A stretch of DNA of 39,562 nucleotides from Reclinomonas americana ATCC 50394. Lineage: Eukaryota. Positions 424-37,587 of this stretch are shown here, one piece after another. The position numbers and the translations under genes are program-made. The notes beneath the pieces were generated by a model, which saw only the letters and a list, made by a program, of their open reading frames with translations, had not been told where the DNA came from and did no database searches. Location: positions 1 to 39,562 of the forward strand of contig AFZH01016638.1 of NCBI GenBank assembly GCA_048213135.1, read 5' to 3'. The stretch's first letter is position 1, and every line of letters starts with the position of its first letter.

Positions 424-3186
424 TTAAATTAGGCTCGCTAACTCGAGTTTCTCGAGCAACTCTGTCACATTTGACTGGTACTCCTTGTAGAATCTGGAGG
501 CCTTGAATCGGCGGAACGAGTCTGCGCAACGAGGAAATGAGCAAACAGAACGAAAGACACAGGGTGTCGTGTCGAGCAACAGCACGGTTCCTCACCGGTG
601 CGCATTGTGTACACCACGGATTTCACAGCGGGCTCAAAGCCCTCCACTCCCATCCCGTGGGAGAGATTTTCCAGCGTCTGCCGTCTTGCAAAGCCCGACA
701 GATTGAGCTCCAGCATCGCACCCGGCAGCAGGTACTGTCACCGCAGATGGTGAGACACCAGCCATGAACACACACAAAACGAAGAAGAAAAGGACGCACC
801 TCGGAGCGAATGCGCTCCATTTCTTCGCGGATGCGAGTCGACTGCCGCCCACTACTCCGCTTGGCGCGCACTCGTAATCTTTGCACGTCTTCCCAGAACT
901 GCGCACGACATGTTGCACGTGAGCTTCCAACGAAAGAAAGCGTCGTCCTCTCATCCCGCAACTCACCAGCAAATTCTCGACAGAGAACTCGGTGGCGAGG
1001 AATGCACGGAACACTTGCCGTGCTGTTGCATCGTGCAGCACCTCCTCAAACGTGGTGGCCTGCAACAGTGTCTGTCCTAGTGGTTCTCGCAACTCCTCGC
1101 CCTCGTCTTGCACCTTGCGGGCACGGCGCATGCTCCTCCACGTGCCCCACAGCGGCACAATCACGGACAGAATGAGCGACGCAATCACGTCGACCACCAC
1201 CAGATACGCCGGCCACGGCGACGTCGGCCACGAGTAGCCGGTCTCGGTGAGCACAAAGAACGGGAGAAGCACGAGGCAGCGCGCCACAATGCCGATCTTC
1301 AGTTCGCGGTTGATGCTGAACTCGTCGCGGACCTGGGCAACGACAAAGGGAGGTGGTGAGCGGCGACAGCATGGCGAGAGGGCAGTGTGTCACGCATGAG
1401 ACGCAACATTGCGCAGCAAAAAGATGAACACCAGGTTCGACAGAATGACAACGGCCATGACGGCGGCCACGACCAGCAGCGAGGTGCGCTCCAGCTCTTG
1501 GCAGTGGCACGCTGCGTGACACGAGAAAATGTAAATCGGAGAGCGGCAGAGAACGAGCATAAGCGAGTGTACCTTCGCAGTAGGGAATCACCAGATCACC
1601 GATCTTGGTGGTCCGGCTGCGACTCTCCGACGGGAACACCCAGATGGAGAGTGCCGTGATCAGCATGAACATGACAAGCTCGAAGATGAGAAGGCACACC
1701 AGGAGGAACCACTCGCTGCGATGGCAGGCTCATCAGCACCAGCCACACCTTCTCCTGTGGCAGACACTCACTCACCTGACAGTGTTCTCTCTCCTAAACA
1801 GCTTATTCAGCGTGCCGTCGGTCGCGCGACCCCGGCGAGGCGTGTTCTGCGCACGGAAGTCTCCATCAGAGCTGCCGGCCGACAGCGGCGACCGTACATC
1901 GTCGTCAGCACGTGGCGTTTGGCCGACGTCTGTCATCTCGTCCTCGGTCATCTCGACCTGCAACGAACACACACGCTCATGAACAACGGTGTTGCGCACG
2001 AGCGCCAGCGACAGAATGCGCACATCAACTGCCAAGCCGCTTTTCAGGGGTGTCTCTTCGCCGGCAGCGCTCGCCATGCTCTCTAACCGCGCATGGTCGC
2101 CACGCCTTCCAGGGGTGCTGGTGCCGGACTCGCTGCCCGTGGAAAAGTACCCGCTGGCGTTCATCGGCAGCGGCGAAATCGCGTCGACGGGACCCTCAAA
2201 GTCAAAGTCCGCCGACGAGTTTGAGCGCTGTGGCGCCAGCTTGGACCGCAGCTTTTCCACCGATAGCCGGAAAATGAGGAGCAAGCGAACACAGCGCAGC
2301 GCGTGTGGTGCTGCAGCGCGAGGAGAGGCCATGTGTCAGATTTGAGGCGGCTGACAAGAGAGTGGGGGGGAATGGCACATACCCAAGTAGGCCGGCAGCG
2401 CCAAGTAGAGCACAAAAAAGTACACGGTGCATGGCATGTTGAGGAGGCGTTGTGAGAGGCCTCCAAACGCCAAGACAATGTAGCCTCCGACACTATAGCG
2501 CGACACACACACGCGAGGTTACGAACAAACGGGGGCGGAGGAGACGTGACAGCAGCCACGGCGTACCTGGAGGCAAACAACAGCAAGGGCGACGACGCTC
2601 GTAATGGTTGCCTCTTGCGCCACATCAGCACCAACACCATGAGGAAGAGCCAGAATGCCGAGTACACCAGGTACAAGTAGAACACCGCCGGACCCGCAGT
2701 CTCCTGCAGACGTAGAGTGAGGGCTAAACATAGCACTCGCTGGATGCACGTGTGCGAGAATATGCACTGACCCCTCACACAGACACATGCATGCACGCGC
2801 GCGCGACTCACGCAGCACATCGTGTCGACATCGACACACACAAAAGATTCACCAGTGTCCCCTCACACAAGCACAGAGGCATTCAAGCAGCGACACGCAC
2901 ACGCGCGAGTGCAGCGCACGCACAGAGAGAATGAGAGAGAGAGAGCAGAAGAGCGCGAGGAAACAAGACAAGGACGCGTGAGTTCGGCATGGCATCACTC
3001 ACTCGCTCACACACACTCTCTCTCTCACAGACACAGACAGCGCGTGTATGTGTGTGAGAGATGCGCAGAGTGAGGCACACACACCTGCACACCGGTCTGC
3101 GATCCATCTGTGCAGTGTGGATATTGACTCTTGGAGTACATCGGCATCCCCATGGCCTCATTCCAACACTGCGACACATACGACAT
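424..3186 (-). CDS. 7TM-RGS protein (seven-transmembrane region fused to a C-terminal RGS domain), 11 exons
   Basis: ATG at 3186 (MSYVSQCW...), 10 GT-AG introns. TM segments include VFYLYLVYSAFWLFLMVLVLMWRKRQPLRASSPLLLFAS, NMPCTVYFFVLYLALP and LLRN|VRDEFSINRELK. RGS box: FEEVLHDATARQVFRAFLATEFSVENLL|FWEDVQ...YLLPGAMLELNLS...DSFRRFKASRFY. Stop TAA 424-426. Confidence 0.9.
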
Positions 3187-3321
3187 ATCGCCCACACAAA
3201 GCAAAGCACTAACACAAACTAACTACTAAGACAAAGGGCGCACACGCGCGACGGAAGAACTGTGACACAAAAAAGTGACTGCAGTGAAATTTCATTCGCC
3301 TTTGCCCTTCCCGCTTTCACC
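3187..3321. promoter_or_regulatory. Putative bidirectional promoter between the 7TM-RGS and multi-ASH genes
   Basis: 135 nt between divergent ATGs at 3186 (-) and 3322 (+). Inferred from gene geometry only. Confidence 0.5.
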
Positions 3322-18329
<15,008 letters not shown>

Positions 18330-18518
18330 CGTAGTTGTTATTACTATTATTATTATTATTGGAATTATGTTTATTGGCCACTGCTGCGACGTAGGAATGC
18401 ATCGTAGATGCGCTGTTGGTATGCCGCAAACGCTTGGTTGCCGGCCAGTTTCTGCGAGAAAACACAGAGTACTTAGAGCGTGTGCGAAAAGCGCGAGAAG
18501 CGGTGTGAAGCAGGTGGG

Positions 18519-21500
18519 TTACGCAACAAACGCATCGCCTGTTCCATGTCTTTCCACAGACTGCTCTCGCTCCAGCGAGGCCGCACGTTGCACCGGGAAG
18601 AACGTCTCGTCGCCAGCACGTAGCCGCTCAAGCACAAATCTACAAAAGAAGTGAGTGAATGGGAAGCCAGGGAAACAATAAGCACCAAAAAAGAACGGAA
18701 CTGCTCGGTGCCATTCAGACTGTGGTACGGCTTCAGTTGGACAGCAACGAGGAAGTTGAGGTAGTGCTGCACGTTGTGCTCGTGCGTTGTGTGATGCCGG
18801 AAGCCTGGTGCCATCGGTGTGAGTCGCTGCGCGCACGCACAATTGATGCCAACAACACATGCAACACACCGTTCGATTTGCGGTCAAAGAGTGCTCGAGA
18901 GAGGCCACAGATGAAACACACGTTGTTTTGGTCTTTCGTGCGCTCCTCACGCTCATTACGCAGTTGCGAGAACGTGTCGAGAATTTGACTGCAGAGCAGG
19001 GTACTCGTGAGTATGCAAGACTTATGGTACAGTAAAACTGCGATCGCAGCTCACCCGAAGATCATGCTGCGCAGCGAGAGAGAGACGGTTAGTGAGTGTG
19101 CGCAGTGTGACACGCACAGAAAGTGCACACACGCACTTGAGAATGATAATGACCATGATGATCCAGAAGACCATGTTGAAAAAGATGCGTCCGCTGCACA
19201 CATCATCTCAGGATGAGCAGGAGGATAACGGACGAGTCATTGCATACAGAAGTGAAGACGCACGGAGAGAGATCCACGGGAAACAGGTCCTCCCATACAC
19301 CACCAACTCGCAATCCAATGCCGAACAGCGCGACCAAGTAGCACTGAATCATGCTCTCACACGTCTGCGCGAAAGCAGCAGAGTTAGTGCGCATCCGTGT
19401 CAGCGCGAAACTGGAGAGACGTCGAACCTTTTCACCCGTGTCTTTCATGACGAATGTCGGTTGCATAAACAGGAAAGCGAATGTGGCAAACAGGTAGAGC
19501 AGAACCATGGCAAGTGCCGCCTGGAGACAAAAGGCTGGATAAGAAGACTACAAGACAGAGGGAAACAAAAATCACACGCAAACGTAACAGTCAGCAACAG
19601 TGACCACTTGTTGGTGGTGATCGACTGAAGCACTTGCTGCAGACCGGCCGACACGAATAGTACCTCCTGTGTGTTACACGCCGACACGTGAGACAAAAAC
19701 AGGTCAACACACAGTCAGGTGTTGATGCCGACAAACCAGCAGTAGGAAGGCGTAGAAAAACTCCGAGACTGCCAGCCCCAAGGACGCAAACACGACAGTG
19801 GCCACCTGCAAGATACAAAGCTCATGCAATGTAAGAAACGGGCGAGAGAGTTCTCGCGAGGACTGCAGGCGGACGACGGCGCAACTCTGTACAGAAGGGC
19901 GAATTGCGTGACACATCCGAGCAAGACTCGCGAATAGTAGCGGAAGTTCCGTGGTAATTTGTCGGTGGCATCCTGGCAACCGCGTTGTCAACACCATTGT
20001 TACCCACACAGCACACAGTGATTTGAAGTCGCTCACTCACCACAGTGTCTAATCGCGGACTCCAACGATTCCAAGCGCCAAGAATGGCCTCGTAGACGAG
20101 ATAGGTCACCAACGTGGTCGCAGCTGACGCCAACGCTATGGAACCGCCAATGAATAGCACAGTGCTCAGACCATCAGATCGGTATCGCAGAGTCCTGCGA
20201 TTGACGCAAACAGAAAACTGAGGCAATGTGTGCGCCAACACAGCAACATCACATGAGTGTTACTCAACAGCAATGAGTTGTCGTCGGCGTACGTGTCCAC
20301 TTGACTGCCGAACAGAACAACGGCGTTCACAAAGAACGACACCAGCAGGAGCAGGCGAATGAGGTTCTGTTCACGTCAAAAAAACATCAGTCGAACGTTC
20401 ATGTCGCGCAGCACCTGCATCGTATACGCACCACATAGTTCTTCCGCAAGAATAACAAGAATTTTCGATTGCGAAGGCTGTACAGATGTCGCATCTCGCG
20501 ATACGCCCACGGAACAACGGCGATGAGCGACTCAATCTTGTGTATGGGACTCTGTCGATCGGCAGTCGACAAGAAGTAGGAGAATGATCGCTTGGACAGA
20601 TACTGACACTCGGGTGGTACTTCGTACCACAGCTGCATGTTGGTGTAGGCGTTGAGAAGAGCAAGTAACAGACGGCAATCCAACACTCGCACACACCGTC
20701 TCAATCTGGTCGTCACGCACAATCTCCACCACACCCACGGCCTCCTTGAAGAGCACCAGTGATGCAGCTCGTGAGCTGACATCATTTCTCGTCGACTTCA
20801 TCACATTTTGCCAGCTCTCCGTTGGCGCGGATGACAGCCACTGCATCAACATGAAGCGGAGACGTCCCAGTTGGAGCAGCTACGGAGAAGCACACGCTGT
20901 GTTGGAAAGTTGCACCCCCATCTCGAGCAGGAGTCGCCGCAATAACGCACCTCGTCTGAGAATTCACGCAGTATTCGAACTTCCATGGCATTGCGCGGAG
21001 CCGCCAGCTTGTCACTATCGTCAGCAACTTCATGCACTCGAACCGCAAGGTCGTACTGAACATCAAGCAGCAGCCATGAGAATCAACGCAGCGACGAAGT
21101 CACACAAAGAGCATGAAGGCACGTCACCATATGGCGGGGATTAAGAATGTCTGCAATGCGCTCCACTCGCGCCGCCGACTGCGATGGATTGCCTTCCAGC
21201 ACGGCAAGCAGCATGGTGCAACACTCGACCTGTGCAACAAGCCAATGATACGTTCAGGTTGAACAGGTCATAACACGGCGGCGAATGGTCACATCATAAA
21301 GGGAAAACCTGGCTAAAGACAGTTGTCGGGCACGGCATTTCGCCGAGTGGGATGCCGAGGATGCGATTGGCAACCGACAATATGTCCGACGACAGCGCCG
21401 CCTCCTGATTCGCCTGACACGGCCTACAACAAGGGAGTGTCAACACTGCGCGCATCAAGAAGCCAGACTGAGAAAAGTCCACTGACCCTTGCAACAACTC

Positions 21501-24500
21501 AGTCACAGTTCGAATGCACTGCGACAGCAGCGGCGCAATCACGCTGTCGATATTCGATTCCACGATCAATGCAAAGCGCGTGATCTCTTCCATCATGTCG
21601 ACATTGACTGGGTAGCCGGCCTGCGTCCGCACAAAATGCTGCAAGCGGAACAACAAGTATGAGAGACTGCGTACCGAGCACACCAGCTCCCGCAGAGTGT
21701 CGTCGAACCTGGAGTGGCGAGAAATGACCTTCGGCCATGAGCTGGATGAGCACGAGAATCTCCATGGGGCACGAATCCACCAACGGACTCTCCCACGGGA
21801 GGACGACTTCGGCTGCACTGAACTGCTTGTAGAATTCCATCACATGCTGAGGCGTCACCCAGCGCTGTGATGGGCGCCGTCGAACAGTGGCCCAGTCCAC
21901 AATCTCTTGCGCCGCCAAGTGGAGACGCCTGCGCAATGACACAAAGAAATCGTCGTGCTCGAGGCTGGCCAGCGCACCACGCACAGCCACTTGAGCCAGG
22001 CGATTTCCACCAGCAAGGACGCGACACAGAACCACCAGTGCGCCACGGGCAATGTTATGCAGCGGTGCTCTGGAGATGATGCTCATCATCTGGAAGAACC
22101 CCCTCAGACATGAGAGAGAGATGAAAGAGCCAATCTTGAACGGTAGAACGCAACTGAAGAGACCACATCCTGCTGCACAAGCATATCACTGCTCGCACGC
22201 TCCATCGCCACCATGCTCAGCAGCGTCAACAGCTTGGAGGCCAGCGTGCTCTCCGCCGAGTGCATGTCGGTGACGGCAACGGCCGACACCCTGCGTGAAG
22301 CAGCACATCCTTTGTTCAGCCCCAGTACGTACGCTACGTGTGTGACATTCTTCTTTCACTCACCGCAGATTGCGAATGAGCGTGTTACATGCTAGCGGGA
22401 CCTGGCGCAGCAGCTCCACCATGCTAGCGTAGTCAGGTCCACAGCGACGACCAGCGGCACTGTTGACGAGCGGAGACAAATGAGAGAAAATGCGCAGGGC
22501 TGCAGCAGTGCACTGGCGTCGATCCAACGTAACATGGTATTCATGTACTCCATAAATCGGCGGTGTCTGGTGTCACAAAGGAGGAGAACGTCAGCAAACG
22601 GATGCGCACTTGCATGCACATACACGGTACTTACAATACTTCGTCAGCCGACAACGCCGCCGTGACCTCATTATCCATGCTTCCCAACTCCACGGTTGTC
22701 GAGTCTTTCACACCGTCGTCGCCGTCGTCGTCATCCGTCACGGCGGTGAGCGACGATGAGAGTCTAAACAGTGGATCGGAGGCCGTTTGCGTGGGATTGA
22801 GACGCTGTTCCAGACGAGCAACGGCCATGCCGAGGCTAGCAACTCGGCGTTCGTCCAATCCACGTACATTGAGTGACGCACTGTACAACTGCCGCAAGTG
22901 CGTGACCAGGCGTCGATACAGTTCACCGTGGGTACTGTGAGAGGTGAAGTAAAATGAGACTAATGAAGAAAAGTGACTGCCACACACTGCTGTCACTCAC
23001 CGCTGCATGCTGCGAGCAACGAGCAAAAAGTCCACCAGCAGCCCAACAATGCGCCCGAGTATGTACTCGTCGGCGCCGGCCTTCCCAAACAACGTCTGAT
23101 CGCCCACTACGCTGGACGACGATGCTTCGTCTTCCAGGTCCTCGACTCCCACCTCGTAGTCCTCCATTGCACCGACAAGCAGCGAGTGCGTCGGTGAACT
23201 GTGACAGGCTGTTGGAGAAGGGACAAAAATATCGAAACATCAGAAAACAGACAAACGAAACGTGTCGGCAGCGTGTCCAGGTGCCGAGTCGACCGGCAGC
23301 CGTCGGCGTACGGTCGGCGACGGCACCAGTGACTCGCGGGTTCCCGTGCGCTGTCGCTCAAAGGAAGCTCGGGCACTCCACGCACCGCTGATGTAGTTGA
23401 CGATCTCTGCATCGAGGAATTGCAGAAGCGACTGACTGTTGCTGAGATCCAGCACCGTCGGTGATACCATGCCGGTGTCGACATACACCTGCCAGAGTGG
23501 GAAAGAGAGAGTGTGAGACTTTCGACGGCAGTCGACGAGGCAAGAATACCGCAAAAACGACATTACGCACTGAGCGAATGAACGTGACCAATGCACAGCG
23601 CAGTTCAATCGGAACGCCTTCTTCGATCAGCATCGACACGGCCTCTTCAAATGCCAGCGTCGACTGCACGATGCTCTCAATCTGGCCACACCACCGTCGC
23701 GTGTGAGAAGACAAAACAAATACAGTCAAATGGGGAGTGCACACAGGAGACGAACCGCAGTCTGCCGCCCAGACGCACACTTGGCAAGCACGCGCAACAG
23801 ATCAATGTGGTACGCCAGCGGTCCTTGCGGGCGGTAACGATGGTCATCGGTCAACATCAATTCGCGACTGCGGAGGGGTGAGTGACGATGGGGATCAAGC
23901 AAGAGACGAGGGAATCAGAAGACGCACCGCTCAGCACGACCATTCTTGCCGCTGAAAAGCAGCAGGGACCGGGGGTGGTGTTGAACAAGAGCTTCGGCCA
24001 CCAGCCGTTGATTGCGAGGAACCGGCAAGTCGTCGACAATGACCGACACCTCAAGAAGCTCCAAATGCCGACGCTGATGAGTGGCAGCACAACTGCTGGC
24101 GGCCAACTCGATGAGATCCACGGGAACTCGTTGTGCCAGCAGCGCCGAGTTGCGAAAGATGTACGGCAGCAGCGAGTCTGCACCGACGTCACACCTGCAA
24201 GCGCAAACACAGTCAATATCACTTAGCGGTGACGCAAGAGAGGGTTGACATGGCGCTCACAAGTAATGCGACTGAAAGAGCGAGATGTGTTCAGAGAACA
24301 TGCGCTGCACAATCGGGCACAGCACAAGCGAAACCTGCGAAACAACATGTTGGTTAGCAGCACAGCACAGTCTGTTGTGGGCGCCGTGACTGCATAACAC
24401 ACCGCCAACAGAGAAGCATACAGGCCACTGACTGCGGACTTGACAAGGGTTCGCTGCGCAGGGCGGCAGTGGAGGATATCCGCAGCTCTGCACCACGACA

Positions 24501-27500
24501 TGCATGTCAGTTGTGCGCGTACACTTGAGCTGCATGACGGGAGTGACCGACACGCAACGTCACTGATCGAAGCAAGTGCGTAATGACAGGGAAACAGCCG
24601 CTGGCAAAGAAAATTCCAACCGCGTCAGTTGGACTCTCACGCACGGCTCGGCGCATCGCTGCACACACAATTCCATCAAAAAGAGAGGAAGAAGAAGAAC
24701 AAGCAGAAAAATGGAAACGCACCCTCAGTGATGGTGCTCATCAAGTGTGCCTGTAGGCGCAGGAATAAGCGCCGGTTGTGCAGCAACACACACGACAACA
24801 CGCACCACACGCTCCAGCAGATCTGGACTGCTGGTCCACTTGTCGTCGGCGTCGGTGGCCACTCGCACCATGGCCAAACTGAGGTTCTGCATCTCTCGCT
24901 GACAGTCGACCAGCGTTCGAGAAAAGAGAAGCCTCACATCTTGCACCGTTGTCAGGGTGTCGGAAAACTTTTCGTGAATCATCAGCAGCGTGTGGAACGC
25001 TTCTGTCTGCAGTGCGACGCTGTCGTATTGGCACAGATCCAGCAGAATGTCGTGCACTTGCTTCGACGCAGAGACGCCAGAGCAGCGCTGGTACATGCAC
25101 GATTCGCAGAGTCAGCATCGTCTCACCCCAAGGAACAGACGTCTGAGACGTACGTTGATGACAGTCGGCAGATGAACGTCCTTGGCTGGCACACCGGCCT
25201 TGAAGTGTCGCAAGAGTACGGTGCAGCGGAAGGTGGTCTCGGTGTACAGCAACGTCTGCATCACCTGCAAGGCAACGACTTTGCAATTCTGCACACACAC
25301 AAGACAAACGCCTTCGTCAGCCGAAGCAGAGACACGAGACACAAGAAAGAAACACGAAACCATGATTGTATCGTTGTTCTCGTTGCTGGCGTAGCGGAAG
25401 TTTGAATGCCGCGTGGCTCCCGGTGCTGGCAGCAAGAGATGTAAGCTGCAACAAGCACAGACACACATCTTGACGACATCGCAACCCACCATCGTACACG
25501 TCTGTGGTGCCGTCCAACAGGTTCCACAAGCTATCAATGAGCGTCCCTCGCGATTGTCCCAGACCAATGAAACCCTCCCGTATCAGTACATGCAGAGTTT
25601 CGAGGAACAGCAGCACTGACTGCGAATGTGATGGATCGGACCAGCGCAGCCGCGTCTCCAATTCCTGCCAGATCACGCGCAGGTGAGACAGAAGTGCGCT
25701 CCACTCTCATCATCCGCAGCGCGCACACACATACCACCACTTGCATCACGCCACTGACAATCTGCTCCTGCATCCGTACAACGGGGTGGTTGCCGTAGCG
25801 GTAACGCATAAACTCGGCATTGTCGATCGTGCACTCAAAGGAGGCTTCGCTGAGCACCTCTGTCCAGACCTGCGTGCACAACAGCAACAACACTTAGTTG
25901 TTGTACGATGATGAATTCGACACAAGCGACGAGCAAGTTATGCACCCGAACGAGATTGATCTTCGGTAACACTTGGAACGGTTGCTGGTCAATGTACAAA
26001 CAGCGCAGAATGTAACAGCAGCCGGCGCGCAAACGCAGTGGCAATCGTGGATCAAAGGCCCCGCGTACAACGACGGGCAATGAGAGGCCAAACGTGTCAC
26101 CCACCAGCGTCACCGCCGGCCGGTACCGTTCCTAACGACCAGAATAAGCCAGATTCGCCAGAAGAACAGCATCTACGCACCGACTCACCGCCGCGAGCAG
26201 TGCGTACAGTCGCAAGCTGCTCATGAAAAACTCGTAGTCCATGCTTGGATTGGCTCGACTGGCGGCAGCCCAGGACAGCACTTCTGTCGACTCCTTCACC
26301 GACAGATCCGCATTGAGAGACACCAACATGAGTTCCTCCCCGCTTGAGCGAGGCTCCTGCGTGAAGGCTGGCGTATGAGTGGTGATCACACACAGAGAGT
26401 CATACGATTCGACAACAGGTGCACACCAAGCAGAGGCGGAAGAAAGGCCAATGTACTTGCGAGTCCGACAACTCGCGAACAGCTGCATGCTGTGCGTACC
26501 GACTGGCCCGGCCGTGTATCGACAGTCCGTGGAAGATGAGAAGCAGGTAGCTGCGACAAAAGAGGTGCCAATCAGTGAGACAAATGCGGGCACCAAGAAG
26601 CGATCATTGCATGGCAACTTTGGATTGCGGCCTTCGCGAGCGGCAGCGGACAGAGTGAGACGCACATCGACGCGGGTGCGGAATAGTTCCGCTTCGTTCT
26701 CAAAGCTGAGTGAAGCGGGTTGAGAGAGTGCGCGAAGAGGCAGTGTGCATGCACAACAAGATAGCCACGAAACAGAAAGGGAAAGGTCCAGCTGGCGCCG
26801 ACAAACAGCGCAAAGTGGAGGCGGAAAACCGCCAACAGCGAAGACTCCGGCCGCAGCACGGCGTACTTGTTGCGACGGTAGCCTCGAATCGACTGCCGGA
26901 TCAGACTGTGCAATCGGGACGTACGGTTCACAAGAGACTGGTGCAGGGGCAACAACAGAGAACACCGGCGGCATGACTTACCGATAAAAGAGGCGGAAGA
27001 CATGTTGAGCTCGCTCATTCACTGGGTCCTCGCGGATCGAGCGACCCGGATAGGCGGTCTGCAACTCGCGAATGCAGAGGCACACCGCTCGTAGCACTTT
27101 CAGCTCTCGCAGTATCTTTTGGAACGCGCGGTCCAGACGACCCTCACGTGTCAGCGGATCGGGGTCGGAGCTAATGGTGCACCCATTGATGAGGCGGGTC
27201 AGTGACTTGCAGATCCACTGGTACGAGCGGTCGTCATCCAGCTGCAGCGGGCCTTGCTGCAGAATGCTACGCATTGACACGAGCAACTACCCGGCACACT
27301 CACGAATTAAGCGAAGCGCATAGATACAGAGATAACGTCGCACAGTCGAGTGAGACGCAACAGGAAGATGAGTGGCGACTGAGTAGGCTCGTGAAATGTC
27401 CGAAAAGCTGACGTGCAGCATCTCCCACGTGCACGAGTACGACGGCGCAGAAGCAAAGACGAGCTGCACAAACAGCACCTCAGTCATCACGGCCACGGGA

Positions 27501-27517
27501 GCGACAACAACAACAGC

Positions 27518-27568
<51 letters not shown>

Positions 27569-29655
27569 CAACGAAGGAAAACGAGAGCACTGAGCATCCT
27601 CATCGTCCTCCAGCATGTCGAGGTCCTTTAGCCTTCCCTCGTCGCAATCGTTTCCCGTGTCGAGTACTGTGAGCACGCACCCCGACGCCACGTGCTGCAG
27701 AATCACCTTGTCGCGGACAGAAAATGGCTCGTTGGTGCCAAGCGTGTGCTGCGCCCCGCTCGTTCAGACGCCACACAACAGTCGACACCTTCACAACAAA
27801 CAAGCAAGCAGACCGCAAGTTCGCCCTTGACGAGACGCCACAAGGTGTTCTCGTCGTCGCGATCGCACGTTGTGTACACAACTGGAGTGCTACTGGCGAC
27901 CGCCTCTGCAGCAGCGGACGATGTCACCGCAATCTCGGCGGCAGGCGCTGCGGCCGACGGGGCCGTGGCGACCGACGCACGAGAGTCGGCGAGACCAGCC
28001 AGCGGATTACGCGTCACCACTGCACCTTCTAGACGGAGGAGAGCCTCGGCGCGCGCCTCTGCCACCTCCTCGGCAGTGGCCATTTGCACAAAACGGTACC
28101 CGAGACCACCTACAGATCGAGGGAGTGAGGCGAGACCAATGCCACCCAAGAGAACCCATGCGATCGTCACTCAACGAGAGTCGCCAGCGGGCGACGGTGC
28201 GGCCACGGATGCGGCACGTGCACGGTGGCCAGTGGTGGCTGCATCGGGATGGGCCGCCAGAAACATGCAGCCACACATGTGCCGCAATCGAAATGTGCTG
28301 CCGAACTTGACAGCACCGCCTGTAGGCAATGGCGACGTGAGGTGCAAGAGAAAGAGAGAGAGGAAGGACAAGAGGAAGAGGAAAACACAAGACCTGTGGC
28401 TGGGCACTCGTGCTCGATCTGGAAAAAGAGATTCGGGTTGTCCAGCTTCATGCGTGACACGCGAGAGCCACGTGTTGCGCGCGGAACAGTGCGGCTGTAT
28501 GCTGCGACGGATGGAGAGACAACGTGTGAGACGACAAAGGCGTGGAGCTGCTGAAAGATGAAGACGAACCGAAACCGTCGGCGCAAAACTCACTGACGCA
28601 CAGATGCGTCTGCGAGTTGGTGTGGTACAGCAGCACCGCATCGCCAAAATGTAGCAGCACCTCGTCTGGTGAGTTGGCGTAGGCGCGGCAGAAGCGATGA
28701 ATGCGCAGAGGTGAGCCAGCGAGCGCCGAGTTGAGCGCGTACCGCTGATCGAGAGGCAGCTTGAACTGACTGACTTGCAGCAGCAGGTTGGTCTCCATCA
28801 CCGCCAGCATCAGGTCGTCCTCGATGCGCACCAGATCGCCGTCGTTGCGCAGTTTCATGGCCGGCGTCAACACGAAATGCGTGCACGAGGTCGAGTACTT
28901 TTGCAACTGCACCGCCATGCTCGTCGACTCGGTGTCGGCCACACGCGGCGTTGATCCCAGCAGCCAGCCCGTACGCACGTGTCGCAGCTGATGGCACGCA
29001 CAGATGAGAAGAGTGGCAGGGAGAGAGGGGGGAAGGGAGGGGGAGGACGAGAACATGCCTGCACAGTGCCGCTGTAGATACACGAGTGAGTCCGCACCCG
29101 GTTCTCCTCGCACCGGTTCGTCTCACGCTCTTGCTCGGCCGACACCTGAGCACACAGCGTCTCATCAGTGGAGGGGCGATGGAAGAGAGAGAGAGGAGAC
29201 GAGCGCAACATGCAGATGCTGCAACTCGGCGCGATCGCCCGGACTGAGCCAGGTCGGCGGCAACTGCGGATCAAACTCCTCCAGACCGAGCACCTCCAGT
29301 CGCCGCACATACTGCATCTGCACCACACACGAGGTGCGTGGCATCACCTCAAACACCGCATCTGTTTCTCGATCATCAGTTACTCATTCGTCATGACTCT
29401 TGATGGAGAGAGAGACGCACCCGAGAAGGATGTCGGTGGGTGCGACACACTCCCGCGCAAAACACCCGCGCGATCGTCGCTCTCGCTGTGCGTGCGCGTG
29501 AGGAGTGGTCAGAGGCGATAAGAAGACCACTCTGCCAATCACAAACGCGCTCACCCGACAGTGAGCACATAGCCGTCGAGCTCCACGCACTCAATCGTGA
29601 TGTGATCGCCATAGTGCAGCAGCGTAGGTGCAGGTAGCACGCTGTCTGCGCTCAT
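18519..29655 (-). CDS. ITPR: Inositol 1,4,5-trisphosphate receptor (IP3R/RyR superfamily) Ca2+-release channel, many introns
   Basis: N-terminal LHYGDHITIE; MIR repeats (GGAVKFGSTFRLRH); RIH motifs RAFQKILRE, GYRRNK and LAYHIDLLRVLAKCASG; RIH-associated LIQLMAEGH..LQ and ELLQGPCQANQ; VGVVEIVRD; TM region; pore helix GLRVGG; NMIFGQILDTFSQLR; zinc finger CFICGLSR..HTTHEHNVQHYLNFL. Stop TAA 18519-18521. The start may instead be the in-frame ATG at 29751. Confidence 0.93.
27519..27566 (+). repeat. (CA)n microsatellite in an IP3R intron
   Basis: Directly visible ac run. Confidence 0.9.
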
Positions 29656-29760
29656 CGGGGCGCACTCCGAGGTTTTGACTGCGAGAAGGGCGAGACTTTG
29701 CATGCATGAAAATGAAGGTCGGTGTCCTGCGTGTTCGAAGTCTTCATTCATTGATATCAC

Positions 29761-30706
29761 ATGGCTGCGGCGACTCCATCGTCATCGCCAGGCGTGTTTT
29801 CGTATCTCCTTCGGGTGTTCACCCCCTCGTCGCCGGCGCCACCACCACCACCACCACAGACCACCAGCGCCACGTCATCACGTCGCGTGACTGTGCGGCA
29901 TCGACGGCGACGAGTGGCGCGCAGCGCATCACCCTCCGCGGCCGCTGCTGCTCCAGTGTCATCACCTCCTCCTCCTCCTCCAGCTCCAGCTCCAGTGCGA
30001 CACCCATCACCTTCACTGCCACCACGGCAACAACAACGGCGAGCATCGGCGTCGCCAGTTCGTGGTGTGTCGCTCGGAGCCGGCGCCCCAGATCCGCAAG
30101 TGCTGCTCGGCCTCGCCTCCTCGTCGATCAGCACCATCTCTGATGTTGACGAGGACAGCGATGACTGTGAACGCAGTGCCGCACCCTTGCTGCAGCAGCC
30201 TACGATGGCCGCCATGCAGGAGCAGCTGGCACGAGCGCGGGCCGACTTGGCGCGGTGGATTGAGTTTGCGAATCGGTGAGTGCGTGGTCTTATGGGGCGC
30301 GTGCTACGTCGTGTGGCTCACATGTGCACACAGACTGCGTGCGGATCTGAAGGACGAGCGAGAGCGGCGATTGCAGGCCGAGTCGCGTCTCGAGGATGTG
30401 TACGCCGAGATGCTGACGTATCATGCGCGGCTGAACGAGCTGGAGAGCCACTACCCGCGGCAAGCGGCGCCAGCGTATCAGGGAACACCGCCGCCTGCAC
30501 CGCGTGTTCTGTTCAGTCCGGCCTCCACGCCGCCGTCGAGAGCCACGTATGCCATGCAGCACGACGTCGATGCGTCGCCAGCCTCGTCGCTGCAATCGGT
30601 GCTGCTTGTCGCCTCGCCACCAGAGGTGCTGGAGTCGCCACCTGTTGCCAGCAAACCACCAGCACGTGCCGGTGCCAGCAGCGACGTCGTGGAGATTGAG
30701 CGATGA
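29761..30706 (+). CDS. Hypothetical Pro/Ser-rich protein with central coiled coil, 2 exons
   Basis: ATG 29761, intron about 30276-30334 (gtgagt...cacag). Coiled coil MQEQLARARADLARWIEFANR|LRADLKDERERRLQAESRLEDVYAEM. Stop TGA ending 30706. Confidence 0.7.
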
Positions 30707-30751
30707 CGGACGGAGACGGATTTAGCATTTTGTTAGGTTTTCGCCCATGCG

Positions 30752-31963
30752 ATGAGCTGGGGGTGGTGGCTGTTGTGTACAGTTGGTGGATCACTCAGTG
30801 CACTTGCTCTCTCCTCGCTGTTGATCTTTGTGCTATACTGTCGATACGTGTGTGGCTTGTCGTGGCTGGCCACCAAGATCGAAGTGATGATGGTGTACGT
30901 GCGTGCAGATCAACTCCCTCCCTCCCTCCCTCCCACCTCCCACCTCCCATCATTCGGTGACATGCATCGCACACGCAGTTCCACGTGCTCAAAGTCGTGC
31001 ACGTTCCCCTGTGGAGAAGGTACCGGCGATCACCCGACTCGCACTACGTTTTGCTGCGCCTGCGACCTGCGGACAACAACCCGACACGGCGTTTCGAGGT
31101 GGACTACGTGGAGGAGCCGCTGCATCAGTGGCCGCCGACGCACGAGCCGCACAGAACGCATGTGCGCGTGGTGTGCATTTCGGACACACACGAGCGCCAC
31201 GCGGCGTTGCAGGTGCCGCCGGGCGACATTCTCGTCCATGCAGGTCGGTCGATTGCATTGCTGCAGTAAGTCTTTGCTTCCACTCACGGCGGTTGCAGGG
31301 GACATTCTATTGCAGAACCGCGGCGTCTCACCCAAGGCGCTGCAGCAACTCGACGACTTCAATCGCTTCCTCGGTTCGCTTCCGCACCGCCACAAGGTGG
31401 TGGTGGCCGGCAATCACGACCAGGTGCTGATGGATCTTGGGGCGGAGCGAGTGCGTGCTGTGCTGTCGCACGCCGTGTACTTGGAGAACGACTACGCTGT
31501 GCTGCCGGTGGACGACGAGCACGAAGTGCATGTGTTCGGGTCGCCCTTGTCGCGACGTGGCAACTCCGACAATCGCGCCTTCCAGCACCGACGCGGTGAG
31601 GCACTGCATGCGCAGTGGGAGCCGCTGCGGAAGCACGCGCAAGAGACCGCTCGCCGTGTGGACCTGCTGGTGACGCACGACACGCCCGAGGGACACGCCA
31701 CCGACGGCATCCACGGCCAGTGCATCCACACCCGTCAGTTTGCCGAGACCGTGCAGCCGGTGCTGCACGTGTGCGGCCACGTGCACAGCTACGCCGGCAC
31801 CTCGCAGTGGTCAGACGACACACACTCGTGCCTCGTGGTCAACGCCACCTCCGTGACGCGCACCTACTTGCCGTACAACCCACCCATCGTCGTCGACATT
31901 CCCATCTCGCTGCTCCGTCACCGGAAGCACAAAAACACCAGCGAGGAGCCAGTCGCCCGCTGA
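30752..31963 (+). CDS. Calcineurin-like metallophosphoesterase (MPPED1/2, 239FB-like) with N-terminal hydrophobic anchor, 3 exons
   Basis: All metal-binding motifs present after splicing: VVCISDTH, DILVHA|GD, VVVAGNHD, LLVTH, HVCGHVH, followed by VVNA..YNPPIVVDI. Confidence 0.9.
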   Translation: MSWGWWLLCTVGGSLSALALSSLLIFVLYCRYVCGLSWLATKIEVMMVYVRADQLPPSLPPTSHLPSFGDMHRTRSSTCSKSCTFPCGEGTGDHPTRTTFCCACDLRTTTRHGVSRWTTWRSRCISGRRRTSRTERMCAWCAFRTHTSATRRCRCRRATFSSMQVGRLHCCSKSLLPLTAVAGDILLQNRGVSPKALQQLDDFNRFLGSLPHRHKVVVAGNHDQVLMDLGAERVRAVLSHAVYLENDYAVLPVDDEHEVHVFGSPLSRRGNSDNRAFQHRRGEALHAQWEPLRKHAQETARRVDLLVTHDTPEGHATDGIHGQCIHTRQFAETVQPVLHVCGHVHSYAGTSQWSDDTHSCLVVNATSVTRTYLPYNPPIVVDIPISLLRHRKHKNTSEEPVAR

Positions 31964-32046
31964 GAAAGGCCCATGAAAGCACACAATGAAGGAGGAAAAA
32001 ACAAACGAAATGTATTTTGCAAGAGGCGGACCAGCAGGCGTCGAGC

Positions 32047-32713
32047 TCACTTGGCCTGCTTGGAGAGATGTTGCAGTACGCGTGACTTGACCCATGCCTT
32101 GTCGTGCGGCACATACGCTCCACTCTGATTGTTGAATGTCAACACGGCCAAGTCGGGCAACGCGTCGACTACAACACACAGTCAGGGAAGGCGACGAGAG
32201 CAGGCGCACAAACAGAGGAAGACGCAACTCCACGCATGCAAGTCCTCGATCTCGTATGTGATGGAGCGCGCCCTCGGGAAGTCCTTCTTCAGCTTTTGTT
32301 CGAACAATTGGCACACACCTGCGATGATTGATCAGCAAAGGGGTTTGCTATCACTCACTCTCACACACACAATCAGACGCACCATCCATGGCCTCATCAC
32401 TCGACTCAAAGTCCGCATATGTGCGTGTGGCGGCCTTGGCGCCCGGTTGCAACAGAACAATGGTGTGCGTTTGTGCCTGCGCCTGTGACAACAAGTGAGC
32501 GACATGGCCATCGCGGTTTCTCTCTCTCTCTCTCTTTCCACCACCCGTCGTGCTTTTTTGTTCCGCGTGTGCTCTGCTGACGCACATGAAGAGAGACACA
32601 CAGAGAGAGAGAGGGGTGGCGGAGAGGCAAGACAACGCAAGCGCGTGTGACGCATGCATGCATGCAACGAGGGCAACATGCAAGATGGACGGGCGCAGAA
32701 AGAGACCAACCAT
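32047..32713 (-). CDS. ERH: Enhancer of rudimentary homolog, 4 exons
   Basis: Spliced product M|AQAQTHTIVLLQPGAKAATRTYADFESSDEAMD|GVCQLFEQKLKKDFPRARSITYEIEDLHAW|IDALPDLAVLTFNNQSGAYVPHDKAWVKSRVLQHLSKQAK matches the ERH family across its length. Not recoverable as a single ORF in the track. Confidence 0.93.
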
Positions 32714-32837
32714 TCTCTTGTGTGTGTGCGTGAGTGTGTGTGGCGGTCGGCGCAGAGGGCGGGCAGCGAGGTGTGATTGATTGTTCCGAGCCAGTGGACC
32801 AACGAACCAAGAACATCTCTTATCTTTTTTGTGCACA

Positions 32838-33379
32838 ATGGACTCTGCGCTGCTTGACTCTGCTGCCCGATCGTTGCGCATAGCTTCACACACTCTCACA
32901 CGCGCACATGAGCAATCGCGGACGTGTGTGTGTGTGTGTAAAGAGGGGCGAAAGAAGTTGTTGAGAGATGCTCATGCATGACCACACACACGCACGCGCA
33001 CACAGGGTCGGAGCCGACGGTGTGACTGGCGTGTTGTGCACGGATGAGTACGGCTTGTGCATTGCAGGTAATGACAGAGAGCGTGCTTGTGCGCTGTGCG
33101 CGTCATTGTGTGCTCACTCGTGCGCAGCCAATGGATCCGCCAACGCGCGTGGTGCCGGCTACGTGAGCTCCATTGCGACACGGGCGTCGGCACTGTCAAA
33201 CCCCGACGACGTGCCTGTTGTGTGCGTGGAGACGCTCTCCAAGTTGAGCACAGAGAGAGATTGAGTGGATCTGTTGTTTGTGTGGTGATCAGTGGCTGAC
33301 ACACGTGTGTGATCTGTGCAGGAAGATTCTCATCCGAAGGGTCGACGCGCAGACGACTGCGATCATCAAGGACAAGTGA
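32838..33379 (+). CDS. LAMTOR5: Ragulator complex subunit LAMTOR5 (HBXIP) homolog, 4 exons
   Basis: Spliced product MDSALLDSAARS|VGADGVTGVLCTDEYGLCIA|ANGSANARGAGYVSSIATRASALSNPDDVPVVCVETLS|KKILIRRVDAQTTAIIKDK matches the LAMTOR5 motifs GVLCTD..GL and PVVCLE. Confidence 0.88.
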
Positions 33380-33479: not shown

Positions 33480-36400
33480 TCACAGCATGGTACAGCGGTG
33501 TTTGGCTTCACCCCAGTGACACGTGCAGCAGATGCAGCACAAGGCGAGGCACTTGGGGAAGCACTGGTTGCCGCATGTGTCGCAGTGGCAGGCGGTGACG
33601 CAGGTCACGCAGGATTCGTGCAGGCAGTTGGTGATGCCGAATTCGCGACTGCGGCTGCGAGGGTAAGGATCAGCACAGATGGCGGCGCGCGTGTGTGCAT
33701 ATGTGTCGGTGGCACCACAGCAGACGTACCCGGCCAGTTCGTCGCGCGACAGCTCCCAGGTGCCAGGCGGTGCGATGCGTTTCTGGTACACGGTTTGCTC
33801 TCTGCCCTCGCCGTACCACTGCACCAGCAGGCCGGGTCTACCGTTCTCGTCAATGGCCCAATCGTCGTGTACCATGATCATGTAGTTGCGGGAGAACAGG
33901 AACCTGTGTGGTGGAGTGTGTGAGGAATCACGATGTGTGGGAGGAAGCACCACGGACTCGTCACCGTTCGCGACGTTGATGCTCGGAGGCGTGACGGGGG
34001 TAGAGATCGAGCCTGCGATGTCGTGTCGTGAGTTTGCTTGCTTGCCAGCTCATTACGCAAGCACATGGCGGGCGCGCAACAAGTAGGCGTGCATGCCGGG
34101 TGTCAGGTGTCGCGATGTCGATGTGTGACTGGCGAACCACGACATGGGTCCGGCCGGCAGATCACTCGGTGGCATGGCAGTGATGCCTGTCGTTGGGGGA
34201 GCAGTGGGTTTCAGTGGCATGGTGTGCACTCACCACTTCGGTTCGTTCACAAACCACTCGATACAAGTTGATTCATCAGCTTGACACTGGTGGCGGTGAG
34301 GAGATCACAACACAGCAAGTACTCATTTCTGCAGCGGGGCTCACTTTTCGTACTCGGGAGGAACGTCTGCAAACGCTGGTGCACGCCTGGATTCACACAC
34401 GCCCTATTGACAGACGAGTGAGTGCCATACAGCCTCTCTCATGTGACTATGATACAAGATCACACCTGCCCGGCTACATGCGGGTCACCCGAGATGAAAA
34501 TCACTCGAGCACGCTTCTCCACGGCCAGCTGCACATGCGTCACACCGCCATGTGAGCAACACACCACTCCGCGCTCCACAAACACAAACAGATTTACGAA
34601 ACAGTCTGAAAGTTCTTGAGCAGATCTGCTCGCTCCGCACGGTGCTGCACGGTGGACCATTGATCTCGCAGATCGTCTTGCAACAACACCAACACATCAG
34701 TGGCAAATGATGAGGCAGTGATCGGCGCACCGAGAGTCATTACCTTCGTTGTCGGCTTGGCCAGGAAGACTCGGCAACGTCTGTGCTTGCCACACGTAAT
34801 GTACCATGTACAACTAGTACACGAGAAACAGGATGTCGGCACCATTGCAACTCACCATTCCAATCACTGTGACAATGCACATGAGCTCATGGCAGCACAG
34901 CAACGCATCACACAAGTACGCAACACTCGTAGTTGATCCAGATAATCGGTGTCGGAGACGAGACCACAATGAACCGAACCTCACCCTCATCCAAGTTCTG
35001 CATGTCGACGACACACCACAGCGTGTGCTATTAGAACTGCGTCGTCCCACTTGCTGCAGTGACTCGCGACGGAACTGCCAACCACTCCATGATACGGCGA
35101 TGCGTTTCCACTTTCACCACCTGTCGCTGCGAGCGCTCCGTGCGCATGTCCACCGCGACAAAAGCCCAATCGCCGAGCAAGTGCACGTATGTGGCCGACA
35201 CCTGCGCATCACTGCACATCACTCTACTGCAAAGACACATGGAACAGCAGCACGTGCTCTCACACCTCCGGGTTTCCAAGCAGGTTGGTGCGAAAATCGC
35301 CAGCCAGCTGGAAGGCAAGAAACATTTCCTGGGCCACCTTGAACAGACCCTGCACGGCACCAGTGAAACTAGTACGTGAAAGAGAGTATCTAGAAACTGT
35401 TTCCACCGCGTACCTGCATCACTGGCGACTGTTGATCTGCATCGCGGTACGATCCCCAGCCATCGAACTGCGCGCGCGCACACACACACATGCACTAAAT
35501 TACAACAGCTCGACTACCAGTTGTCCGCAATTACGCTGCACATTACGCACAATATCGTGATCGTCCCACATGCATGAGAGCGGCACCTGGCACATCACTC
35601 GCGAAACCGGAAATGAGCCCCAGTTGCTGCAGTAGTCGTCCCAGAAAAATCGATGCAGTGAGCGGTGCATTTCGTCGGTGCAGGGCGTCTCTCGGAGCGT
35701 TCGTGTGGCCTCCGTGTCACCGTACATGGCCTCCGCCGACTTGTCCACCCACTCACGCACTGCAGCGACCGCAGACCACACTGGATCGGCGTAGATCTGA
35801 TCGCCACCCATGTGCATCCTGCATGCACGCAGCGATGACACGAAACAACAAAAATGAACAGTTCGGCACGATTTCAATTGTCACAGAGTGTCTGCAGACG
35901 CAACATGTGATACGGTGGCGCGTCCTCTGGATCCAGGTGCGTTTCACGCAAGTGTTCCCACATGGCGAACAGAGTCGCGTCTTCTGTTTGCTCCTCCACC
36001 AGATTCGACATGCCGGAATTGCCATTGCACCTGAGGAGGACTGGTGAGCAAAAACCAGAAGAGGTGTGCAAGTGTGGACTCGACTGAGAAGACGCAGCGA
36101 GGCAAAGAGCAAATTCGGAGCCGTGCCCACGGGTGGCACTCGGAACTCGAAGCGAAACGACGGCTGATCAAACTTGAACTCGGAGAACGAGTAGTGCACG
36201 ACCTGGTGCACGTCATTCTGTGGCACATCCATGTCCCATCGAATGAGGGCCTGTCTGCCATCACAATCCACGGCCACTGGGGCGACTGCTTCGACTGTTT
36301 GCGGTTCGCATCCAGGCGATGTCGACTGCCAAGTTAAAGTGCCCGGTCGTCTGCGCATTCATGCAGGGCAGATGTTGTTGGATATTGCCGGCATGCAGTA

Positions 36401-37401: not shown

Positions 37402-37587
37402 CGTTGCGTGCGAGCACCCACTGAAAACGAAACATAAAAAGAAGAAAAATTCCGGCGGGCGATAATGGTTCTCTTGTCACGACGACCAGCAGCACACACC
37501 GAGCTCACACAAACATTCACACGATGCATTACAACACTTCAACCCAGTCACTGATAGGAATTAAAATAATGATCTACAGCCGCTCAT

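Follow-up and report, generated by a model that had tools for sequence, protein, structure and literature searches.

How does a spliceosome recognize the 5′ end of an intron when the motif that it normally reads stands one base too far downstream? This question is raised by the introns in a window of 39,562 nucleotides (nt; 39.5 kb) of genomic DNA from Reclinomonas americana ATCC 50394 (GenBank assembly GCA_048213135.1, contig AFZH01016638.1, positions 1 to 39,562 of the forward strand). Ordinary 5′ splice sites (donors) in this window carry G at intron position +5. The original prediction, which a model made from the letters of the window, claimed a second class in which the same motif is displaced by an extra T and the G stands at +6 (GTT-NN-G). 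The computational analysis reported here indicates that this shifted donor class is, with high probability, real. The best available reading of the class, to which we give a probability of roughly 0.55, is that the spliceosomal small nuclear RNAs (snRNAs) pair with these donors in a register shifted by one base.

Usage and anatomy of the displaced donors

Introns were called with a dynamic-programming exon/intron gene finder that combined a three-periodic Markov coding score with intron composition, acceptor and branch matrices and a length distribution. In donor-blind runs the donor score was flat, any GT being equally good. Three such runs with differing settings gave 133, 217 and 173 introns, respectively; the third was stricter, with a minimum exon length imposed and GC donors permitted. 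In the learned-donor model, donors were learned as a two-class mixture, and 163 introns were called. An intron was counted as frame-required unless its length was a multiple of three and it held no in-frame stop, in which case it could be read through. The high-confidence subset comprised frame-required introns of 45 to 130 nt with a YAG acceptor and flanking exons both of at least 30 nt.

All 18 positions listed in the original prediction hold a GT and the heptamer given for them, on the strand given. Its outer limits correspond to intron 3′ ends, 1333 to that of the intron with its donor at 1407 (-) and 33321 to that of the intron with its donor at 33243 (+). The raw count of GTTGCGT on both strands is 16, compared to 11.8 ± 3.3 in shuffled sequences, 15 of 100 of which reach 16. 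As the bare word is not enriched, the question becomes one of usage as a donor above chance. Within the gene spans there are 11 sense and 4 antisense copies of GTTGCGT; six of the sense copies were used as donors in the donor-blind analysis and ten in the learned-donor model, the top usage of any heptamer. Control words behaved differently. Among sense copies, donor-blind usage was 17 of 49 for GTT.[ACT]GT, compared to 3 of 156 when the +3 base is not T (GT[ACG].[ACT]GT) and 1 of 59 for the word lacking G at +6 (GTT.[ACT][ACT]T). Similarly, GTTGCGN was used in 11 of 31 copies and GT[G/C/A]GCGN in none of 60. In the first donor-blind run, GTTGCG was picked eight times and GTGCGT ten times.

It had been proposed at the outset that the class would dissolve if, among GTT donors without G at +5, G at +6 were no more frequent than in the background. 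In the third donor-blind run, G at +6 was found in 23 of 34 such donors and in 102 of 440 unused sense GTT sites (p = 1.8 × 10⁻⁷), and G at +6 followed by T at +7 in 17 of 34 versus 32 of 440 (p = 7 × 10⁻¹⁰). With G at +6 so far above the background, the observation stands. The second run gave the same picture (25 of 39 versus 107 of 468 for G at +6; 15 of 39 versus 35 of 468 for G at +6 with T at +7), and there the excess was absent when +3 was A, C or G (2 of 12, 6 of 20 and 11 of 43, respectively). When an unsupervised two-component mixture was fitted to the donor-blind donors, it separated nnG^GTGcGT (70%) from nnt^GTtgCGt (30%; a caret marks the exon–intron boundary), with a Bayesian information criterion of 5878 for two components and 5901 for one. 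For most of the listed sites there is no in-frame GTNNGT alternative within 45 nt.

The anatomy of the two classes is as the original prediction had it, namely a normal core displaced by one base behind an extra T. The canonical donor is G^GT(G/A/T)(C/A/T)GT and the shifted donor (T/A)^GTT(G/T/A)CGT, in which the inserted +3 base is always T. Positions +4 to +7 of the shifted donor (G.66, C.84, G 1.0, T.75) mirror positions +3 to +6 of the canonical one (G.60, C.47, G 1.0, T.68). Read from −1, the canonical donor is G-G-T-G-C-G-T and, read from +1, the shifted donor is G-T-T-G-C-G-T, a difference at a single position. The displacement is coupled to a change on the exon side. G at −1 is present in 77 of 99 canonical but 2 of 32 shifted donors (p = 2 × 10⁻¹³; 66 of 87 versus 2 of 23 in the donor-blind set), which is also below the exon background (p = 0.001 to 0.015). 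The 32 shifted donors have T in 15 cases, A in 11 and G in 2, and T exceeds its share in exon composition (12 of 23 in the donor-blind set; p = 0.001). Furthermore, the C of the core is held more tightly in the shifted class, with C at +5 in 27 of 32 compared to C at +4 in 47 of 99 canonical donors (p = 2 × 10⁻⁴; 19 of 23 versus 39 of 87 donor-blind).

At the other end the introns are alike. Median length is 68 nt for shifted and 71 nt for canonical introns (p = 0.18), base composition is similar, and 27 shifted and 82 canonical high-confidence introns share branch motifs (CTCAC, CTGAC, CTCAT), branch-to-acceptor distance and a CAG or TAG acceptor. These shared 3′ features point to one spliceosome type and not to a parallel system like the U12-type one. 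A U12-type identity was considered and rejected, as branch motif, distance, acceptor and length are those of canonical introns and the donor is unlike the U12-type consensus, RTATCCTT. A family of introner-like repeats was also rejected; an all-against-all blastn comparison of the 163 introns gave matches of 13 to 21 nt, mostly of low complexity, with no grouping by class.

The shifted class makes up 23 of 173 introns (13%) in the donor-blind analysis and 22 of 136 (16%) in its high-confidence subset, and 32 of 163 (20%) and 27 of 132, respectively, in the learned-donor model. The remaining learned-donor introns comprise 99 canonical donors with G at +5, 21 others, 6 GC donors and 5 with G at +6 but without T at +3. 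The learned-donor figure is partly self-reinforcing, so that the honest range is 13 to 20%. Compared to the earlier estimate of roughly a tenth of introns, the class is abundant as claimed but its share was understated, being nearer one sixth. As claimed, it occurs in unrelated genes, namely the Hydin-like, IP3-receptor-like (IP3R-like), PhoD-like, ERH, RGS-like, LAMTOR5 and coiled-coil genes. Of the 18 sites first listed, 13 were picked donor-blind and 16 by the learned-donor model, and the remaining two, 32873 and 33243, come from an earlier gene model and from reading of the sequence; at 15028 and 25360 the motif is present but the intron is not frame-required. Altogether, all but four of the 32 shifted introns (28) are frame-required, and their removal gives back long open frames.

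Several junctions could be compared with homologous proteins. A Pfam scan of 149 exon translations gave contiguous profile coordinates across a junction in ERH alone. The exons around 32228 match the Pfam ER profile at 31–59 and 61–98, and the split codon fills position 60; against human ERH (PDB 1w9g_A), exon residues 1–26 align to 32–57 and the next exon starts at 62. The ERH junction, one of those for which homology had been invoked, is exact by these comparisons, with one residue left for the split codon. In LAMTOR5, the exon that ends at 33243 matches residues 35–69 of 5vok_A, and use of this donor gives a protein of 71 residues, one split codon and 18 residues, or 90 of 91. If the exon is extended past 33243 to the next in-frame GT, it meets a stop. 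The final model places this donor at 33217, which conflicts with the 5vok_A alignment. The earlier claim that the donor at 32873 puts the GV of the conserved GVLCTD at residues 20–21 agrees with the 91-residue human chain, as inferred from the 5vok_A alignment coordinates, but the N-terminus is unconserved and support for this donor is moderate to low.

In the IP3R-like gene, the donor at 29209 was not confirmed by homology, as neither flanking exon has an IP3R match in PDB; in a local alignment of this region with P0002, a 632-residue IP3R-like N-terminal fragment, a 2-residue gap stands beside the junction. At 19588, the first residue of the downstream exon falls on position 2373 of IP3R3 in the alignment, and 12 of its 12 matches are to IP3R, with no match for the upstream exon. 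At 18701, residues 5–34 of the upstream exon align to IP3R1 2628–2657, and the downstream exon has no PDB match.

Pairing registers that may explain the class

If the register is shifted, these introns would be ordinary GT-AG introns that share the major spliceosome with their neighbours but have a 5′ splice site that is read with an offset of one base. Pairing with the displaced core, one base along, would be made by the 5′ end of U1 and then by the ACAGAGA region of U6. U1 would thus treat the site as if it were located one base further downstream, accepting one mismatch, the intron G+1 taking the slot of the exon G−1 and U+3 taking that of U+2, and cleavage would still take place before the sole available GU. 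T would be required at +3 because U+3 pairs where U+2 normally does, and G at −1 would go unselected because G+1 already fills that slot. The requirement for T at +3, the loss of G at −1 and the tighter C at +5 together favour a fully shifted register over a plain bulge. We infer the pairing register itself, a general involvement of U1 and U6, and the pairing of U1 or another reader with the C of the core.

Several points weigh against the register shift. Every intron is an ab initio prediction by models self-trained on this one window, and exact confirmation by homology was obtained for one shifted junction only, that of ERH at 32228; the checks at 29209, 19588 and 18701 were one-sided or gave no match at the junction, although none contradicted it. 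Four of the 32 shifted introns (6874, 15028, 25360 and 38661) are multiples of three and stop-free in frame and may be read through, and the donor-blind model passed over the donors at 22154 and 27361 in favour of in-frame GTs that lie upstream by 9 and 18 nt, respectively. On the exon side, a shifted register predicts A at −1, yet T is the commonest base there, and G lies below the background; neither is explained by it. The pairing energies are a further concern. They are means of nearest-neighbour duplex energies in kcal/mol, calculated with the standard U1 5′ end, with pseudouridine taken as U and with no proteins. With the standard U1, canonical donors give −5.86 in the canonical, −0.21 in the shifted and −2.86 in the bulged register, and shifted donors give −0.21, −0.72 and −0.63, respectively. 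For the shifted class the energies thus put the shifted register first, ahead of the bulged and the canonical one. Since pairing of shifted donors with the standard U1 is near zero in every register, U1 pairing alone fails to explain their recognition unless U1 differs in this organism. The tight C at +5 suggests that something in the organism pairs with it. If U1 instead has G opposite +4 (ACGUAC type), canonical donors give −7.91, −0.19 and −2.84 in the same three registers and shifted donors give −0.21, −3.68 and −2.86, the shifted register being the best at 26 of the 32 shifted sites. A U1 5′ end with G opposite +4 is predicted as a concrete consequence.

An alternative is that U1 and U6 pair normally with G+1 and U+2, that one U of +2/+3 is looped out and that the core is then paired as usual. 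At sites lacking G at −1, such a bulge has as many base pairs as the shifted register, and its energies are close to those of the shifted register (−0.63 versus −0.72 with the standard U1, −2.86 versus −3.68 with the G-variant), so that it is the best register at 2 of 32 sites with the former and at 5 of 32 with the latter; in the available text of a human study, this register is described as experimentally established in human cells (PMC4856993). However, a bulge leaves the −1 slot free and G should persist there or be favoured, whereas it is present in 2 of 32 shifted compared to 77 of 99 canonical donors. A bulge at +3 also admits any base, but only T was seen (0 of 60 versus 11 of 31), and no excess of G at +6 accompanies A, C or G at +3. 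On these sequence statistics, which bear on pairing indirectly, a plain bulge is judged unlikely. Because T at −1 fits neither the shifted nor the bulged register, there is room for a U1 variant that is dedicated to this class and complementary to all eight bases of the motif. The original prediction likewise suggested variant U1 or U6 snRNAs, or else altered U1C/LUC7-type factors, as possible readers, and this part of it is a conjecture. Here a second U1, perhaps with a matching U6, would extend recognition by one base and pair perfectly with (T)GTTGCGT, giving two U1 species within one spliceosome type. The class is indeed sharply defined, with no tail of weak sites and with ten of the 11 sense copies of GTTGCGT used as donors; it has its own preference for T at −1 (15 of 32, p = 0.001) and a tighter core C, and its pairing with the standard U1 is about zero. 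The accessible part of one survey gives lineage-specific U1 5′ ends that match atypical donors in Entamoeba and Mastigamoeba (10.1101/2022.06.08.495308). Against a dedicated variant, a scan of the whole window with Rfam at gathering scores returned no family and thus no snRNA gene. To our knowledge, no case on this scale has been reported in which one intron population is served by two U1 species that differ at the 5′ end. In the same part of that survey, Thecamonas and Mamiellales, which prefer C at +4, have only a standard U1 (10.1101/2022.06.08.495308). A dedicated variant may be proposed, but it too is unlikely, and it is slightly less likely still that one major spliceosome runs two parallel 5′ splice-site codes, with a second U1 species (possibly with a change in U6) needed by about one sixth of introns. 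If true, this second U1 would join U1 and U11 as a third type of dedicated donor reader.

The displaced motif may also reflect no special register but a loose donor requirement, in which GT with a downstream G and T suffices, with help from proteins or exon definition. GTT-NN-GT would then be no more than the most frequent of many variants that are tolerated. In line with such looseness, 21 of 163 donors fall in neither class, five more have G at +6 without T at +3, and GC donors also occur. Among the "other" donors, with G at neither +5 nor +6, G at +7 with T at +8 is enriched (11 of 41 compared to 150 of 1410 unused GT; 6 of 21 in the learned-donor model), which hints at larger displacements. 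On the other hand, the displaced core matches the canonical core position by position, the excess is limited to sites with T at +3, and the coupled loss of G at −1 is the signature of a register, which makes looseness improbable. Most improbable of all is that the sites are products of the gene models or of chance and that the real donors lie elsewhere. The models were self-trained on 39.5 kb, in their earlier versions they produced micro-exons and overlooked a GC-AG intron, and the raw motif count does not exceed that in shuffles. Nevertheless, three donor-blind runs with different settings gave the same enrichment, the control words were not chosen, most of the listed sites have no in-frame GTNNGT alternative within 45 nt, and the ERH junction is exact.

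Introns, gene models and genes in the window

The coordinates of the shifted introns and of the genes are collected in Table 1. Genes were located by Pfam scans and purpose-built gene models, and a Pfam scan of 146 raw open frames served for gene location only. The window has a G+C content of 57%, and its introns are dense and short, with a predicted median length of about 68 nt, an interior rich in CT/TG, and CTCAC- or CTGAC-type branch motifs about 18 to 20 nt from a CAG acceptor. A search of the window for tRNAs found none.

Table 1. Introns with shifted donors and genes of the window. The caret separates exon (lower case) from intron; "both" means that the donor-blind and the learned-donor models call the intron.
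Feature	Coordinates	Strand	Donor	Gene or region	Support
Intron	1333..1407	(-)	aat^GTTGCGT	RGS-like	both; frame-required; 75 nt, CTCAC branch motif, CAG acceptor
Possible intron	6874..6951	(+)	tca^GTTGCGT	Hydin/CFAP-like	learned-donor only; multiple of three, stop-free; low confidence
Intron	7061..7131	(+)	gaa^GTTGCGA		both; frame-required
Intron	9534..9594	(+)	aag^GTTTTGT		both; frame-required; one of two shifted donors with −1G
Intron	9748..9822	(+)	caa^GTTGCGC		both; frame-required; absent from earlier list
Possible intron	10882..10957	(+)	gct^GTTGTGA		learned-donor only; donor-blind prefers 10885 GTGATGG; low confidence
Intron	12104..12171	(+)	cca^GTTGCGC		both; frame-required; absent from earlier list
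Possible intron	15028..15093	(+)	caa^GTTGCGG		learned-donor only; not frame-required; low confidence
Intron	15308..15396	(+)	aca^GTTTCGT		both; frame-required
Intron	18452..18527	(-)	ttt^GTTGCGT	IP3R-like, 3′ end	both; frame-required
Intron	18640..18701	(-)	gca^GTTCCGT	IP3R-like	both; upstream exon aligns to IP3R1
Intron	19521..19588	(-)	act^GTTACGT	IP3R-like, pore-domain region	both; downstream exon aligns to IP3R3
Intron	19806..19885	(-)	aga^GTTGCGC		learned-donor; frame-required
Intron	20195..20268	(-)	gct^GTTGAGT		both; frame-required
Intron	22090..22154	(-)	tca^GTTGCGT		learned-donor; donor-blind prefers in-frame GTCTCTT 9 nt upstream
Intron	22460..22533	(-)	cat^GTTACGT		both; frame-required
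Intron	23199..23261	(-)	cac^GTTTCGT		both; frame-required
Intron	24488..24558	(-)	gac^GTTGCGT		both; 100-nt upstream exon open in phase-2 frame; earlier 4-nt micro-exon an artefact
Possible intron	25289..25360	(-)	atg^GTTTCGT		both; not frame-required
Intron	26706..26773	(-)	tct^GTTTCGT		both; frame-required; in-frame GTTTGTC 33 nt upstream
Intron	27287..27361	(-)	cct^GTTGCGT		learned-donor; donor-blind prefers in-frame GTCGCCA 18 nt upstream
Intron	28110..28175	(-)	ctc^GTTGAGT		both; frame-required
Intron	29146..29209	(-)	cat^GTTGCGC	IP3R-like, N-terminus	both; frame-required
Intron	32169..32228	(-)	gga^GTTGCGT	ERH	both; exact by homology
Putative first intron	32873..33005	(+)	atc^GTTGCGC	LAMTOR5	earlier model and sequence reading; moderate to low support
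Intron	33243..33321	(+)	caa^GTTGAGC	LAMTOR5	earlier model, sequence reading, 5vok_A alignment of upstream exon
Intron	34013..34080	(-)	ctt^GTTGCGC	PhoD-like	both; frame-required
Intron	34529..34602	(-)	act^GTTTCGT	PhoD-like	both; frame-required
Intron	34867..34924	(-)	agt^GTTGCGT	PhoD-like	both; frame-required
Intron	34998..35075	(-)	gca^GTTCCGT	PhoD-like	learned-donor only; frame-required
Intron	35819..35904	(-)	cat^GTTGCGT	PhoD-like	both; frame-required; PhoD_2 match in downstream exon
Possible intron	38599..38661	(-)	atc^GTTGCGT		learned-donor only; not frame-required
Possible intron	38889..39029	(-)	gat^GTTACGT		learned-donor only; 141 nt, atypically long; low confidence
Gene	about 424–3323	(-)		RGS-like membrane protein
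Gene	3322–18329	(+)		giant Hydin/CFAP-like protein	ASH/Ig domains; 66 exons
Gene	about 18371–29655	(-)		IP3-receptor-like channel	>50 exons
Gene	29761–31963	(+)		metallophosphoesterase
Gene	about 32047–32655	(-)		ERH
Gene	32838–33379	(+)		LAMTOR5
Gene	33508–36232	(-)		PhoD-like phosphatase
Gene	36803–39116	(-)		coiled-coil protein

The first gene models yielded micro-exons of 1 to 14 nt and spurious antisense genes, and the donor-blind and learned-donor models disagree at several shifted sites. Gene finders that have been trained on only one donor matrix will wrongly place or overlook an appreciable fraction of this genome's introns. The final model breaks the IP3R-like gene at 18814–19066 (-), with a predicted stop after a 16-nt exon (near 19051) and a new start at 18814, and an earlier model reads a conserved pore-lining and C-terminal stretch through this region.

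Donors other than GT were also predicted. At 28988–29058 (-) in the IP3R-like gene there is a probable GC-AG intron (cag^GCATGT), across which the translation aligns without a gap to P0002; models limited to GT gave a 4-nt micro-exon or a 110-nt intron at this place. The six predicted GC donors are at 36098 (-) (intron 36031–36098), at 4388, 9405, 7499 and 33053 (+), and at 3551 (-). The donor at 36098, ctc^GCTGCGT, has the shifted motif with C at +2 and is ambiguous, with an alternative GT and GC 3 and 5 nt downstream. Donors of the "other" group, such as those at 12290 and 17205 (+), may be two-base displacements or mis-chosen donors.

Runs of GT/TG dinucleotides are strand-biased in the two large genes, where GTGTGT occurs 110 times in sense and 8 times in antisense; examples of such runs are found at 27464–27562 (-), 32916–32940 (+) and 3464–3575 (+). 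The runs sit within introns and thus inflate apparent counts of GTNNGT. The genes themselves are tightly packed. The Hydin-like and IP3R-like genes are convergent, and their predicted stop codons, at 18329 (+) and 18371 (-), are about 40 nt apart. Two pairs are divergent: about 180 nt separate ERH (32655, -) from LAMTOR5 (32838, +), and about 100 nt separate the IP3R-like (about 29655, -) from the metallophosphoesterase gene (29761, +).

Word-index searches with single exons of the IP3R-like, RGS-like and PhoD-like genes, among proteins of up to 2000 residues, returned nothing at E ≤ 0.001. The exons without a relative in these searches were 28604–28987 (-), in the IP3R ligand-binding region, 967–1332 (-), at the start of the RGS domain, and 35551–35817 (-), with the PhoD motif. 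For the exon at 28604–28987, an exhaustive search of representative proteins gave two weak matches, one of which was an unrelated repeat protein and the other P0002, at 32% identity. These searches yielded no close relative or transcript-derived protein of this organism, and the lineage seems to be very poorly sampled.

Comparison with known splice-site systems

Shifted-register 5′ splice sites in human genes were reportedly described by Roca and Krainer in 2009. Compared to these human sites, the shifted donors of R. americana share the GU that is kept as the cleavage site, the U at +3 and a core one base further in. The difference at a single position between the canonical and the shifted string is what the register proposed for those human sites would give, U1 pairing there with each base one position along (PMC4856993). 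The human sites are a handful with an AAGU core, whereas here the core is (G/T/A)CGT, the share is 13 to 20% of predicted introns, and the class has its own preference for T or A at −1, with almost no G. The comparison with rare human shifted and bulged U1 registers, which was drawn at the outset, is an apt one. In the available text of the human survey, 68 (54 after curation) of 201,541 sites use a bulge at +2/+3 and 51 (36) a bulge at +3, or about 0.03% each; non-canonical registers combined account for about 2% of sites, and shifted and bulged registers alike are described as proven in human cells (PMC4856993). As in the human bulge +2/+3 and +3 registers (Roca 2012, Tan 2016), there is an extra intron nucleotide between the GU and the paired core, tolerated by U1 and hence by U6. 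Compared to these bulge registers, the share found here is several hundred times higher, and a bulge does not account well for the loss of G at −1 or the need for T.

Literature searches found no report of a one-base-displaced donor as a major class in any organism, most subscription journals and supplements lying outside their coverage, and searches with the motif strings and with the canonical consensus found no matching report. Register-shifted and bulged donors, known only as rare human exceptions, make it harder to score splice sites and to interpret disease variants. If about one sixth of introns use a shifted register, this genome would provide a natural system for studying how the cleavage site is fixed when U1 is out of register. 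The same system would address the handover from U1 to U6 with one extra nucleotide and the co-evolution of snRNAs with donor classes.

Lineage-specific changes in U1 provide a second comparison. According to the part of the survey by Roy and Bowser that is available, the U1 5′ end is AACAAAC in Entamoeba and ACGUAC in Mastigamoeba, with GUGCGC donors in the latter, and Thecamonas and Mamiellales combine a preference for C at +4 with a standard U1 (10.1101/2022.06.08.495308). The donor of Ostreococcus is given as GTGCGTG in the accessible text of another report (PMC2483917). As in Mastigamoeba, the canonical donor described here favours C at +4 (47 of 99), and the pairing energies improve markedly with a G opposite it in U1; position +6 is mainly T here (67 of 99) and C in Mastigamoeba. 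Unlike in Entamoeba and Mastigamoeba, where the change replaces the consensus for all introns, two registers coexist here within the same genes.

Like U12-type introns, the shifted introns form a second, sharply defined donor class alongside the major one in the same genes. Unlike U12-type introns, they differ from their neighbours in neither branch site, acceptor nor length, their donor is not of the U12 type, and their share of 13 to 20% is far above any U12 frequency known, the human one being about 0.36% in the available text of the human survey (PMC4856993). The shifted class of R. americana is a quantitatively extreme version of known splice-site recognition.

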